Below are positions 27,001 to 30,000 of a stretch of 64,000 nt of DNA, piece by piece. A program made the position numbers. The stretch spans positions 1,504,001 through 1,568,000 of the forward strand of contig OZ244065.1 of the NCBI GenBank assembly GCA_965215505.1. The letters are read 5' to 3'. Within the stretch, counting starts at the first letter, position 1, and every line of letters starts with the position of its first letter. Origin of the DNA: Capsulimonadaceae bacterium (GTDB taxonomy: Bacteria > Armatimonadota > Armatimonadia > Armatimonadales > Capsulimonadaceae).

Positions 27001-30000
27001 AGAAGTCATCTTCGAGTTCATGGTCCAGGTGCAGACGGACGCCCTGCGGATGCCCGTCGAGGACGCGACCGTCGTCTGGGACGAGCGCGTTTCGCCCTTC
27101 CGCCGCGTCGCCACCCTCCGCATCCCCGTCCAGGAGTGCGACACGCCCGAGCGGCGCGCGTTCGCCGAGAACCTATCGTTCACGCCCTGGCACTCCCTGC
27201 CGGAACACCGCCCCCTGGGCAGCATGAACCGCATCCGCCGTCCGCTTTACGCCCTGATCTCCGGCATCCGCAACGCCCGCAACGGCGTCCCGCACGAGGA
27301 ACCCACGGAGGAGGCACCGAGTGCGCTATAACAGTGGCGGGAGGTGAACACTGATGCTGACGACAATCGAGGGTGTCTACAAAGACGGCAGGATCGAGCT
27401 GTCCGAAACTCCGGAAGGCACTGAGGAGAGCCGGGTGCTAGTAACGTTTCTGGAGGGGGGCAAGGCAAATGGCTCCGGTCAAACCGGGAAGGGCCGGATG
27501 ATCACGTTCGGGATGTTCCCCGGCCTCAACGGAGTGACGGACGAGGATTTCAAGGCCGCCGAGTTCCACGGCGACGCTGACGACGGACTGGATTGGCCGT
27601 GACCGCATTGTTGGAAGCATCGCCCTCCCGTATAGAAAGCAGAAGCCGCCGCCTCATTATGAGGCGGCGGCTTCTTTTAAGAGCGGGCGACCAGGCTCGA
27701 ACTGGCGACATTCTCGTTGGCAACGAGACATTCTACCACTGAATTACACCCGCAACGGTGAGGAAGAGCAGAAGTGGTTACGAGGATGATTATGCACCAA
27801 GCGATGCCGGTTTGTCAACAGGTTTGAGGCGAAACCGCAAAAAATAGATGCCTTCCATCGGATTCGAACCGACACTGTATGCGGCCTAAACGCATTCTCT
27901 CTACCAATTGGAGTAGGAAGGCCCGTCTGGCGAGAGTCAGTATATCCGAGCCGCCGCCGGATTGTCAAGCCTCGCCCACAGGAAGCAACGTCAGGGGGAA
28001 GAAGGCGGGGGAAAGGACAAGGCAGGAGGGCGCGGCAAGCAGCGCCCCTATGGTCACGCCGACCTCCTGCCCTCTTCTGTCCCCTGGACAGGTCAGGCCG
28101 CAGCGAGTGATTTCCAATCACTGGTCCTATCTCCTGCCGCCCCCAACGCGAGTAAGAACCCCTCCCGTCAGGTATAATGACGCAGGAATGCGGACGCCGC
28201 CCGGCGAAAGGGGCGGCGATCCTCTCCCCTTACTTCTGACAAGGAGCACGTTTTCATTCTCATGGCTGAACAAGACGACCCCACCCGAGATAATTCCTTC
28301 GAGGCCGCGAACGCGATCCCCGGCATCGGCGACAACATGGACGATGACGACGACATGCGCGAGCGCACGCCGATTGACCTGGATGCCCCCGTCGAGTCAA
28401 CCCCCACCCCGGTCGCGGCACAGACGCCGCCGCCCACGAACGGCACCGCGAACGGTGCGGTGACTCTCGAATCCGGCGGGCCGACGGTCAGCTCGAAGGA
28501 AGTGGAAGAGCTGAAGGACAAGGCGAAGCAGGCTAACGACAACTATTTGCGCGCCATGGCCGACTTGCAGAACTTCCGTCGGCGCGGCGAGGAGGAGCGA
28601 GTCCGCATCATCCGGGACGCCAACGAGCGGCTCATCAAGGAGATGCTGCCGGTCCTGGACGACTTCGACCTCGCGCTGGACGCCGCCCGCAAGACGGAGA
28701 GCTACGAACAGCTCATCGGCGGCGTCAGCGCCATCCTGCGGAAGTTCTCGGAGACGCTGGGCAAGCAGGGCGTCCAGCCCATCCCCGCCGTCGGCGAGCC
28801 GTTCAACGCCGAGGTGCATGAGGCGGTCATGCTCGACGAGGAGAGCGAGGAGCCGGACGAGACGGTGACCGCCGAACTCCGCAAGGGCTACACGCTGCAC
28901 GACCGGGTGATCCGCCCGTCTCTGGTCAAAGTGGCGAAAAAGGGCTAAAAGAAGGGGCGAGAGTCGAGCATGAACGGGCAGCGGCTCCGGCCCCTGGGGC
29001 TGGGTGACATCTTTGATGAGGGGTTCGACTTGTACAAGCGCAACTTCGTGTTTCTGCTGCTGGTCACGGCCCTCAGCGTCGTCCCGCTCGACATCGGGCT
29101 GGCGTTCGCCACGCCGCACCTGCTGCCCGCCGTCTTCGACCTGTTCGGCATCACGGCTAATTCGGACGCCTCCGGGATCTGGCTGGCGGTCTTCGCGACC
29201 AAGCTGACGCTGTTCCTGCCGCTGTTTCTGCTCGCCGTTGCGCCCCTGACTGCCGCCGCCTCTGGGCGGTATCTGGAGCGGGAGGCGACGCTCTGGTCGG
29301 TCTACCGGCTCTGGCTGCGCCGCCTGCCGGTCCTCCTGCCCGCGCTCCTGCTGACCGGCCTGGCCCTGGCTCTGGGCCTGCTCCTCTGCGGCGTCCTCTG
29401 GTTCGTGCCGGCCACTCAGCTCTTTTTCGTCCTCCAGGCCGCCATGGTCGAGGGGAAGGGGCCTGGCAGAGCCTTGGGCCGGTCGAACGGCCTGGTGAGC
29501 GGGTTCGGGGGCCGGGTCTTCAACTGCCTGCTGATGCTGGGCCTCATCGCCTGGGTCATCAGCCTGGGTGTCACTTTCCCCCTGGGCTACCTCGTGAGCA
29601 GCGTCCTGCACATCACGCCTGGCGCGTCGAGCCTCTACGGGGGGGCGGCCGCCGTCGGGCACACGGCGGAGGAGCAGGTCGTGACTCTGATCACGAGCGG
29701 CCTGGCCCACCTCGTCCTGATCCCGTTCCTCGTGTGCGTGATGACCGTCCTCTATTACGACCTGCGAATCCGCAAGGAAGGCCTGGACATCGAGATGCTG
29801 GCCGACGAGCTGCGCTACCCGCCGCTGGCCGCGCTCGGCCCGTTCCTGCCGCCCGCGCCCGTCTTCGGCCCGATGCGCCCTGGGATGCCGCCCGCCTATG
29901 TCCAGGCCCGCCCCGGAGTGCCGCCGCCCTCTTACGGGGGGCCGCCGCGTTGACCCTCTTCTCGCGGACGGCGCTCGTCCTTTTCCTCTCCGTCCTTGCC

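Follow-up and report, generated by a model that had tools for sequence, protein, structure and literature searches.

A short-armed type I tRNA-Leu(UAG) in the slot of a class II tRNA-Leu gene, and an intron-bearing tRNA-Leu(UAA), as the probable CUA and UUA decoders of a Capsulimonadaceae bacterium

The closest described counterpart of the tRNA analyzed here is the type I tRNALeu(CAA) of Streptomyces coelicolor, which carries a variable loop of 5 nt and is leucylated by the single LeuRS of that organism (Fan et al. 2019, Nucleic Acids Res 47:6369, PMC6614811). According to the searched passages of that paper, attempts to delete the gene failed, the tRNA is the sole reader of its codon, and the long arm is dispensable for this one bacterial LeuRS. 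The same passages list the determinants of E. coli tRNALeu as A73, A14, A15:U48, G18G19, U54, U55, C56 and A58, and report that the Streptomyces enzyme does not use A73, that the E. coli LeuRS was unable to charge the Streptomyces type I tRNALeu, and that the LeuRS insertion known as the leucine-specific domain (LSD) mattered. They also describe type I tRNA-Leu of animal mitochondria, which likewise combines a short loop and A73 with a LeuRS of bacterial type, but belongs to an organelle with a dedicated LeuRS, has relaxed structures and is no substrate for the Streptomyces LeuRS. Our search for further reports of bacterial short-armed tRNA-Leu, phage tRNAs included, returned this paper only; most subscription journals lay outside that search. 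A second related system is formed by the tRNA arrays and long 'L-arrays' of bacteria and phages, and the passages searched in the two papers on them contain no mention of short-armed Leu tRNAs (PMC4758250, PMC8421152).

The window, a stretch of 64,000 nucleotides from a bacterium of the phylum Armatimonadota, contains a tRNA of class I shape with the anticodon UAG, a 5-nt variable loop (ACAGU), the discriminator A73 and G37 (Table 1). Its D arm reads CUCC-AAUUGGUAG-AGAG, with a D stem of 3 bp and a C13.A22 mismatch, and its T loop is UUCGAAU. Like the S. coelicolor tRNA as described in those passages, it combines the 5-nt loop with a Leu anticodon, stands alongside class II Leu isoacceptors in a genome with one LeuRS, and is the only reader of its own codon. 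It differs in the isoacceptor, which is UAG and not CAA, in the phylum, and in the fact that the short form sits in a former class II slot. The genome-wide survey's note had taken bacterial tRNA-Leu to be always class II and the short shape to be unlike any of them, a view that the Streptomyces tRNA, as reported in the passages of PMC6614811, contradicts. Over 76 nt, the conserved downstream partner, tRNA-Gly(GCC), matches with 100% identity the tRNA-Gly(GCC) located behind a class II tRNA-Leu(UAG) in a genome of the same genus (G008). A candidate promoter, identified by pattern match only, stops 17 nt upstream of tRNA(UAG), and a second promoter-like match sits between the two tRNA genes, upstream of tRNA-Gly; the consensus scan gave 3 sites against 0.3 expected. 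ARAGORN finds two tRNA genes only in the window, while a tRNA array is defined by at least 20 tRNA genes at a density of at least 2 per kb in the searched part of PMC4758250. The tRNA thus lies outside any array and has one tRNA neighbour.

Table 1. Positions of the tRNA pair and of the elements around it in the window.
Feature	Position	Strand	Basis
Class-I-shaped (type I) tRNA, anticodon UAG	27849..27922	-	74 nt; ARAGORN tRNA-Leu(tag); Rfam tRNA 50.9 bits, E 6e-10
tRNA-Gly(GCC), downstream partner of tRNA(UAG)	27681..27753	-	ARAGORN; Rfam 63.4 bits
Sigma-70-like promoter match, TTGACA-18 nt-TATACT, 11/12	27939..27968	-	Consensus scan; pattern match only
Second promoter-like match, TTGACA-18 nt-CATAAT, 11/12	27789..27818	-	Consensus scan; pattern match only
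Terminator-like hairpin, 16 pairs	27641..27675	-	Consensus scan; directly downstream of tRNA-Gly
grpE, synteny anchor upstream of the tRNA pair	28262..28948	+	Pfam GrpE 162.7 bits

The whole genome (6,177,771 bp, 1 contig, 66.5% GC) was searched for tRNAs. Rfam gave 59 matches, as in the survey's note, and ARAGORN a single tRNA with a UAG anticodon, the 74-nt molecule with its 5-nt loop and A73. No other UAG tRNA was detected in the genome by ARAGORN, Rfam or two covariance models. The credible class II tRNA-Leu genes called by ARAGORN carry the anticodons CAA, CAG and GAG only, leaving aside the intron-split Leu(UAA) gene described below; a fourth call, a 'Leu(cag)' at 159038, is missing from the Rfam list. 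A covariance model of class II tRNA-Leu agreed, scoring these three genes above 90 bits and the next match in the whole genome at 44 bits. With a covariance model built on the window tRNA, neither a second copy nor a short UAA relative was found in the genome at E values up to 10. A tRNA cluster at 2219562-2221409 keeps the Lys-Phe-Gly ... Met-Asn-Arg order seen in arrays of the genus and has no Leu gene in its gap of about 980 bp. The best match of tRNA(UAG) within the genome is tRNA-Thr(CGU), at only 50 of 74 positions; an origin from tRNA-Thr was considered and rejected, this level being judged background similarity.

We compared tRNA(UAG) with the known leucine identity elements. It has A73, A14, G18G19 and A15 together with U48, the last base of the variable loop, which is the set used by a LeuRS of the E. 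coli type. The A15:U48 pairing is read from the letters, the D loop beginning with AA and ACAGU ending in U. The D-loop letters, AAUUGGUAGA, are identical to those of E. coli leuV, and the placement of G18G19 as well as U54, U55, C56 and A58 of the T loop are as in tRNA-Leu. The long variable arm of class II is absent and replaced by the 5-nt loop. LeuRS is encoded at a single place in the genome, positions 5967436-5970024 (TIGR00396, 1007 bits), and the enzyme is canonical, aligning from end to end with the T. thermophilus LeuRS (891 bits). Acceptance of a type I tRNA-Leu(UAG) by this LeuRS is plausible; given the failure of the E. coli enzyme and the role of the LSD, it is not guaranteed.

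The use of the codons was evaluated on orthologs, by aligning ORFs of at least 250 aa (blastp-fast) with those of G008 and of another genome, G024. CTA was aligned to Leu at 70 of 93 positions with G008 and at 47 of 65 with G024 (72-75%), and TTA at 60 of 71 and 29 of 39, respectively. For comparison, the fraction aligned to Leu was 0.837 (G008) and 0.637 (G024) for CTG, and 0.692 and 0.601 for CTC. In the same-genus comparison the value for CTA, 0.753, is below that of CTG, 0.837, and inside the range of the other Leu codons (0.667-0.845). No residue other than Leu exceeds 8% at CTA positions. The statement of the survey's note that CTA and TTA behave as leucine codons is borne out by this independent test.

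The D arm of tRNA(UAG) belongs to a family with the signature YCCAAUUGGUAGAGR, accompanied by A15:U48 and A73. The motif was drawn from tRNAs already known to carry Leu anticodons, and the tallies for genomes and viral contigs are samples rather than censuses. Among the 49 distinct short tRNAs that show a Leu-like D arm at loci of the order, 48 bear an anticodon for Leu (UAG 29, UAA 16, GAG 2, CAG 1). Searched alone in species genomes, the motif gave at least 119 loci; the matches listed include 86 cloverleaf-consistent sites, 85 with a Leu anticodon, all 86 with A73 and with U48, and 72 with a 5-nt variable loop. ARAGORN reports no tRNA at 30 of the 119 loci among the matches listed, a few of which are truncated or disrupted Leu tRNAs. 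In viral contigs the motif gave at least 124 loci, and the 102 consistent sites among the matches listed comprise 100 with a Leu anticodon, 100 with A73 and 102 with U48. Among these matches, the family is present in many phyla, in tRNA arrays and in viral contigs; to judge from matches in other Streptomyces (L196, L198), the S. coelicolor tRNALeu would be a member too. Outside the order, the closest relatives of tRNA(UAG) among the sampled contigs are viral, with 64, 62 and 60 of 74 positions identical. Within the order, its relatives lie in clusters of 8-18 tRNAs per 2-4 kb, and array-borne relatives score 74-80 bits with the covariance model of the window tRNA. In their dense clusters and on viral contigs, these relatives resemble the bacterial and phage tRNA arrays and 'L-arrays' treated in the portions searched of PMC4758250 and PMC8421152.

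The chromosomal slot was then compared across the order. The short tRNA(UAG) is present at 93-100% identity in 18 of the 23 other genomes of the genus, in agreement with the survey's note, and within the genus base pair 5:68 shows a compensatory change from U-A to C-G. The same note had counted it in 0 of 17 genomes outside the genus, which is too narrow: within the family, a further two genera have the same short tRNA at the same site (G062 of genus g6, G066 of genus g8). In the three genomes of the genus where this site is without the short tRNA (G003, G004, G008), an 81-nt class II tRNA-Leu(UAG) is found instead, and the same tRNA-Gly(GCC) follows 20-35 nt downstream of it. Both flanks of this locus align to the window, and the flank upstream of the class II gene matches window positions 28150-28554 with 81% (G003) and 72% (G004) identity. 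Used as a BLAST query, the class II tRNA-Leu(UAG) found a match in 46 of the 71 genomes of the order. Among 30 loci fetched, 29 are class II Leu(tag), with Gly(gcc) directly downstream in 27 of the 29. A class II gene with tRNA-Gly(GCC) behind it is what 29 of the 32 sister-family genomes have, as do most of the remaining genera in the family of the window organism, which makes class II the probable ancestral state for the order. Read from gene order, the tRNA pair across the order is a class II tRNA-Leu(UAG) followed by tRNA-Gly(GCC), and the short form holds that slot here.

A tRNA with the anticodon UAA had been reported as undetectable, an intron-bearing candidate having been rejected, and the reading of UUA was left unexplained. 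The candidate was right. ARAGORN with the option -i places Leu(taa) i(34,253) at genome positions 3589077-3589412, outside the window, with an insert of 253 nt in the anticodon loop. The gene occupies the locus where relatives have an intronless gene. Its exons are intact and equal to the intronless genes of sister species (19 intron-bearing genes compared), and the intron is kept in 18 of the 23 other genomes of the genus. A structure drawn by hand from one sequence and then scored on 16 sequences shows a P1-P9 core with a P3/P7 pseudoknot. Over its 56 pairs, the share of paired cells is 93.0%, and in 19 of the pairs both partners vary; none of 500 shuffles reached the observed value, and slid controls were paired at 31-43%. 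In P1, the exon sequence GACUU pairs with GGGUC in 16 of 16 sequences, and the 5′ splice site lies at a U.G wobble; the last intron letters are ...GGUAAG, with a terminal G if the splice is set after U33. A profile of the intron alone matched a cyanobacterial trnL intron (27.2 bits; E 1.9e-9 at this locus), for which RF00028 gives 85.4 bits; in the own genome the profile had no other match. Rfam Intron_gpI (RF00028) gave no match at E values up to 10, either at the UAA locus or in the whole genome. In the part searched of an intron survey preprint, 0 of the 12 RF00028 seed sequences are bacterial. Since covariation and profile homology are both positive, this null result is not counted against the intron. 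A search of RNA sequencing data for the tRNA-Leu(UAA) region listed no run that contains it.

On these grounds we identify the insert as a group I intron homologous to that of cyanobacterial trnL(UAA), with which it shares the site in the anticodon loop, the P1-P9 fold, the U.G at the 5′ splice site and the terminal G. It differs in that the host is not a cyanobacterium, in the lack of an Intron_gpI match, and in its splice sites, CU/u...g/UAAAA when a terminal G is assumed, which fall one base 5′ of the classical CUU/a...g/AAAA. From the exons staying intact we infer that the intron is spliced, presumably by self-splicing. With a tRNA-Leu(UAA) gene present, the decoding of UUA no longer lacks an explanation.

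Taken together, tRNA(UAG) is very probably a functional type I tRNA-Leu(UAG), the decoder of CUA and a member of a mobile family in a former class II slot, with UUA read by a class II tRNA-Leu(UAA) that has a group I intron. That the short tRNA decodes CUA and inserts leucine, as the survey's note proposed, is supported by the identity elements, the replacement in the class II slot, the family-wide association of the D arm with anticodons for Leu, and the behaviour of the codons in orthologs. The single bacterial-type LeuRS would charge it through A73 and the tertiary core (A14, A15:U48, G18G19 with U55C56, and U54-A58), and would rely on neither anticodon nor long arm. Its codons would be CUA and probably, by wobble, CUG. 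Its source may be the short-armed Leu tRNA family that circulates horizontally among many phyla, on phage-like contigs and within tRNA arrays, one member of which would have displaced the ancestral class II tRNA-Leu(UAG) in its slot upstream of tRNA-Gly(GCC), beside grpE. UUA would be read by the separate class II tRNA-Leu(UAA), whose anticodon loop holds the group I intron. The structure of tRNA(UAG), its conservation and synteny, the anticodons of its family and the behaviour of the codons are shown by the data above. Charging by LeuRS, expression, modification of G37 and an origin from a mobile element are what we infer for tRNA(UAG) from its sequence and its context.

A class-I tRNA of another identity might have gained the UAG anticodon, so that CUA would be reassigned or mistranslated; the tRNA-Thr(UAG) of yeast mitochondria is an example of such a tRNA. 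The class I shape of the only CUA decoder would fit this reading, as would its best in-genome match to a tRNA-Thr. We nevertheless consider it highly improbable: orthologs place CTA at Leu, with no competing residue above 8%; the D loop, A73 and A15:U48 form the Leu set; the relatives carry all Leu anticodons and, among the matches listed, almost no others; and the gene has taken the place of a class II tRNA-Leu(UAG). It is just as hard to credit that a mobile element left the gene behind as a silent relic while CUA is decoded otherwise. The viral location of the closest sampled relatives outside the order would agree with a remnant, but the searches detected no other UAG tRNA, CTA is used at conserved Leu positions, the gene is conserved in the genus with a compensatory stem change, and a promoter-like site precedes it.

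The remaining alternatives concern the history of the slot. The short tRNA could be the resident class II gene itself, shortened on the spot through loss of its variable arm and with no foreign capture, since slot, anticodon and neighbours are the same. This is improbable, because tRNA(UAG) matches the class II gene of G008 at only 39 of 74 positions and differs from it in all four stems, whereas the nearest viral tRNA matches at 64 and the array-borne relatives score well with its model; its D arm is, moreover, the family-wide motif. A reverse polarity deserves more weight but still appears unlikely. The short tRNA would have been fixed once in the ancestor of the genus studied here (g1), g6 and g8, and the class II genes of G003, G004, G008 and G067 regained by recombination. 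It would account for the short form at this site in all three genera. In its tRNA-Gly and tRNA-Leu(UAA) genes, this genome stands nearest to the class II carriers G003, G004 and G008, from which it follows that alleles moved between close relatives, whichever the direction. Against it stands the class II arrangement of the sister family and of most other genera of the own family. Displacement of the class II gene by a captured short tRNA is the reading that we retain.

More tentatively, and with some doubt on our part, a single mobile lineage of short-armed tRNA-Leu may run through phages, tRNA arrays and many phyla, be accepted by ordinary LeuRS far beyond Streptomyces, and have left here a phage-type copy that permanently displaced an essential class II tRNA-Leu. 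As a bolder extension, the long arm might have been lost under selection, as an escape from tRNA-cleaving defence nucleases. The passages searched of one paper describe a defence system by which tRNA-Tyr is cleaved in its variable loop (PMC13096335), and those of a paper on bacterial Schlafen proteins hold nothing on class II specificity or Leu and give the escape idea no support (PMC13056530).

For this genome, the results point to neither an odd genetic code nor an undecodable UUA. A whole isoacceptor would be overlooked in annotation by tRNA finders that lack intron models. The one experimentally studied bacterial type I tRNA-Leu, that of Streptomyces, would gain a counterpart in another phylum and for another isoacceptor. 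Sister species differ in which form, class II or short, occupies this one chromosomal slot and offer a clean natural experiment. The D-arm signature picks out short-armed Leu tRNAs, among the matches listed, across phyla and viral contigs, and this distribution suggests that tolerance of LeuRS for armless substrates may be widespread and that core decoding genes can be supplied by mobile elements.

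Two tRNA genes were found in the window with ARAGORN, tRNA-Gly(GCC) and a 74-nt class-I-shaped (type I) tRNA with anticodon UAG. In the sequence of tRNA(UAG), a 7-bp acceptor stem leads through U8 and A9 into the D arm CUCC-AAUUGGUAG-AGAG, which has three pairs and the mismatch C13.A22. The anticodon stem of 5 bp closes the loop UUUAGGC (anticodon UAG, G37), and a variable loop of 5 nt (ACAGU), a regular T arm (UUCGAAU) and the discriminator A73 complete the molecule. CCA is encoded in the genes of several relatives, and not in this one. A promoter-like site (11/12 matches) ends 17 nt upstream of tRNA(UAG); tRNA-Gly has a second such site in front and a hairpin of 16 pairs behind. 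All three are pattern matches only. The pair is adjoined by grpE, then by DUF4129, DUF4350 and MoxR-type AAA ATPase genes (window 28262-34314), and six large ORFs around the tRNAs gave no Pfam match at E 1e-5.

Across the single contig of this genome (6,177,771 bp, 66.5% GC), Rfam matched 59 tRNAs, and ARAGORN without introns called 63 tRNAs and one tmRNA. The only UAG anticodon among these calls is that of the window tRNA. With seven class II Leu tRNAs as the basis of a covariance model, the CAA, CAG and GAG genes were recovered at 93-95 bits, the next match being a tRNA-Ser at 44 bits, while a model of the window tRNA detected no second copy in the genome at E up to 10. The observation in the genome-wide survey's note that the sole UAG-anticodon tRNA is class-I-shaped therefore holds with ARAGORN, Rfam and both covariance models. 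Its restriction of class II Leu genes to CAA, CAG and GAG is correct when introns are not searched for, but an intron-split class II Leu(UAA) gene is also present. A fourth 'Leu(cag)' call, at 159038, is missing from the Rfam list and was taken as false. The tRNA-Ile(UAU) gene also occurs inside tRNA arrays of relatives (L038, L042, L043, L069).

Positions of the tRNA genes, tRNA-like genes and intron ORFs (own genome, whole-contig coordinates; L numbers, fetched loci)
Feature	Location	Strand	Evidence
tRNA, anticodon UAG	window 27849-27922	-	ARAGORN; Rfam tRNA 50.9 bits, end to end
tRNA-Gly(GCC)	window 27681-27753	-	ARAGORN
Class II tRNA-Leu(CAA)	own genome 2518854		ARAGORN without introns
Class II tRNA-Leu(CAG)	own genome 3985617		ARAGORN without introns
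Class II tRNA-Leu(GAG)	own genome 5191995		ARAGORN without introns
tRNA-Leu(UAA), 253-nt intron in anticodon loop	own genome 3589077-3589412 (L001:378-713)		ARAGORN -i 'Leu(taa) i(34,253)'
ORF with HNH endonuclease motif in trnL(UAA) intron	G002 L093:1703-2188	+	Pfam HNH_3 25.0 bits, just above cut-off
ORF with HNH endonuclease motif in trnL(UAA) intron	G013 L085:1671-2141	-	Pfam HNH_3 19.9 bits, below cut-off
tRNA-Ile(UAU)	own genome 5948263-5948339 (L054)		
Small tRNA cluster	own genome 2219562-2221409 (L053)		
tRNA-like gene cluster	own genome 1684958-1685854 (L002)		Rfam tRNA 38.8-44.5 bits; weak tmRNA-like match
tRNA-like gene	own genome 4778535-4778657 (L003)		Rfam 44.4 bits
tRNA-like gene	own genome 1210607-1210733 (L005)		ARAGORN -i, 49-nt intron; no Rfam match
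tRNA-like gene, 77 nt	own genome 1991483-1991559 (L004)		39.8 bits

Other unusual tRNA-like genes were seen. In cluster L002 the acceptor stems are of the tRNA-Ala type (G3:U70) and the D and T arms are normal, with 48-72 nt instead of the anticodon arm. L003 carries about 56 nt within the anticodon loop, L005 is a similar call, and L004 has an irregular anticodon loop. The tRNA arrays of G024-G029 (L030-L035; G024 is from the sister family) contain GCA-anticodon (Cys) tRNAs of 84-87 nt that are class II-shaped, with a long variable arm.

The short tRNA is probably a leucine tRNA, as its identity elements, the Streptomyces precedent, the replacement of a class II gene at its site, its D-arm family and the codon alignments indicate. 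The determinants described for E. coli tRNALeu in the accessible text of PMC6614811 (A73, A14, A15-U48, G18/G19 with U55/C56, and U54-A58) can each be read in the sequence of the window tRNA, whose D loop AAUUGGUAGA is letter for letter that of E. coli leuV. The survey's premise that bacterial tRNA-Leu are always class II is contradicted by the S. coelicolor type I tRNALeu(CAA). According to the same text, this tRNA has a 5-nt variable loop and is charged by the single LeuRS of that organism and not by E. coli LeuRS, its gene could not be deleted by the authors, and nearly every bacterial tRNALeu belongs to type II. Like S. coelicolor, our genome encodes a single LeuRS, a canonical bacterial enzyme. 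Among bacteria, one Streptomyces isoacceptor is already established as a type I tRNA-Leu.

BLAST confirmed that the short tRNA is kept in 18 of the 23 other genomes of the genus; it was not found in G003, G004, G008, G005 and G012. In G003, G004 and G008, the same tRNA-Gly(GCC) is directly preceded by an 81-nt class II tRNA-Leu(UAG), whose flanks match the window with 72-81% identity on the grpE side (G003, G004) and 90-100% on the Gly side. Neither form was seen in G005 and G012, genomes that are 75% and 84% complete. By BLAST, the class II Leu(UAG) gene has matches in 46 of the order's 71 genomes, among them 29 of the 32 from the sister family; it is present at 29 of the 30 loci fetched, with Gly(gcc) directly downstream of it in 27 of those 29. 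The slot is held by the short tRNA in our genome and the 18 others of the genus, Gly(gcc) lying within the fetched stretch at 18 of their 20 loci, and also in G062 and G066, from two other genera of the family. The recurrence of the class II gene beside Gly(gcc) across the order argues that this arrangement is ancestral and that the short form replaced it.

Within the order, tRNA clusters contain short tRNAs whose D arm is of this kind, and 48 of 49 distinct ones have Leu anticodons (UAG 29, UAA 16, GAG 2, CAG 1); the 49th reads CAG if its loop is registered with C33. The D-arm motif alone, scanned over one genome per species, gave at least 119 loci, and the matches listed come from Actinomycetota, Cyanobacteria, Planctomycetota, Myxococcota, Armatimonadota, Deinococcales, Acidobacteriota, Proteobacteria, Verrucomicrobiota, Bacteroidota and a few archaeal bins. 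Among these listed matches 86 sites are cloverleaf-consistent, with a Leu anticodon in 85, A73 and U48 in all 86, and a 5-nt variable loop in 72. Viral contigs gave at least 124 loci; the 102 cloverleaf-consistent sites among the matches listed have a Leu anticodon (100), A73 (100), U48 (102) and a 5-nt loop (95), and many viral sites among those matches sit amid 4-21 tRNA genes within 3 kb. The motif was taken from tRNAs already known to carry Leu anticodons; the association is nevertheless a fair test because the anticodon lies outside the motif. According to the accessible text of PMC11028032, the anticodon is not read by LeuRS. A D-arm family with every Leu anticodon and almost nothing else matches the expectation for Leu acceptors.

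The small cluster L053 of our genome (Lys, Phe, Gly, a gap of about 980 bp, Met, Asn, Arg) follows the gene order of genus arrays that hold short-armed Leu(UAG) and Leu(UAA) in G003 and G013; no Leu gene was detected in its gap. On cyanobacterial contigs (L128, L129, L172, L202, L210) a non-anticodon stretch comes after the acceptor 5′ strand and the Leu-type D arm, and likewise at L124, L130, L150, L169, L179, L181, L214 and L217, mostly actinobacterial, a non-tRNA stretch follows the D arm. Within 120 nt of flank this stretch is conserved in each of the two groups; it may be a differently placed intron or the tRNA-like domain of another RNA.

The short gene could have arisen by deletion of the long arm in place or by capture from outside. 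The window tRNA is identical to the class II gene that it replaced at 39 of 74 positions, and to viral-contig tRNA-Leu(UAG) genes, among the contigs sampled, at 64, 62 and 60 of 74; with the latter it has the D stem CUCC...GAGAG in common. A model of the window tRNA gave 74-80 bits for array-borne relatives in the order and no more than about 45 bits for other tRNAs. From these comparisons we infer capture from a mobile pool rather than deletion in place.

Codon usage was examined by aligning our stop-to-stop ORFs with ORFs from 400 kb each of G008 (same genus, class II UAG; 162 alignments, mean 72% identity) and G024 (108 alignments, mean 48% identity). These ortholog alignments bear out the earlier claim that CTA and TTA behave as leucine codons. 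Leaving out the relative's own CTA/TTA positions changed the CTA values little (0.72 and 0.71), and no residue other than Leu exceeds 8% at CTA.

Fraction of own codons aligned to Leu
Codon	G008	G024
CTA	70/93 (0.753)	47/65 (0.723)
TTA	60/71 (0.845)	29/39 (0.744)
CTG	0.837	0.637
CTC	0.692	0.601
CTT	0.667	0.547
TTG	0.819	0.601

The tRNA-Leu(UAA) gene reported as missing is present. Five genus genomes (G014, G018, G019, G020, G021) have an ordinary intronless class II tRNA-Leu(UAA), whose flanks and both tRNA halves map to 3589045-3589417 and 3589986-3590393 of our genome, and the interrupted gene occupies this place. The joined exons form a class II tRNA-Leu(UAA) with the anticodon loop CUUAAAA and, in our copy, one acceptor-stem mismatch (U4.U69). 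The interrupted gene occurs in 18 of the 23 other genus genomes (70-88% identity over exons and intron; the intron is absent in 5), and in most of these genomes its exons are letter-identical to the intronless genes of sister species.

A group I fold (P1-P9, P3/P7 as a pseudoknot) was scored on 16 intron-bearing sequences: pairing is kept in 93.0% of 895 cells, both partners change in 19 of 56 pairs, and none of 500 shuffles equalled the score. Sliding the partners by 1-3 columns left just 31-43% pairing, a control in which the fold, drawn from one sequence, is favoured. P1, P3, P4 and P7 are invariant, and covariation lies within P2, P5, P6, P8 and P9. In P1 the exon end GACUU pairs with GGGUC, giving U.G wobbles, and the intron ends in G if splicing follows U33. 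Rfam Intron_gpI gave no match at this locus or in the whole genome; its seed contains no bacterial sequence, according to the accessible text of a survey preprint. The intron-bearing alignment profile matches a cyanobacterial trnL(UAA) gene at 61.9 bits, the intron of which scores 85.4 bits with Rfam, and a profile of the intron alone still reaches 27.2 bits, over the core, with no match elsewhere in our genome. With exons intact and a group I intron indicated by covariation and profile, the candidate had been wrongly rejected. Since the exons are conserved, splicing is implied, and UUA would have its decoder provided that the intron splices.

G001, G002 and G013 have an intron longer by about 500 nt; the HNH ORFs of the latter two (156-161 aa, same strand as the tRNA) likely encode homing endonucleases. 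In BLAST of 401 sampled genomes of the phylum, which distant copies would escape, the intron turned up in four genera of the family and nowhere else. Short matches to its core away from trnL(UAA) (G023:C4:3591829-3591889, G019:C1:3612984-3613062, G338:C42:4000-4049) may be other group I introns. BLAST of the relatives' tRNA-Leu(UAA) flanks also brought up a palindromic repeat of about 140 bp, with dozens of copies in both orientations in our genome (e.g. 5061666-5061800, 2798912-2799048).

No report of short-armed Leu tRNAs as a widespread array and phage family was found in the literature searched, which leaves most subscription journals outside, nor any mention of them in the accessible text of two tRNA-array papers. 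What is new here is the in-place replacement of a housekeeping tRNA gene, together with a simple signature of the family.
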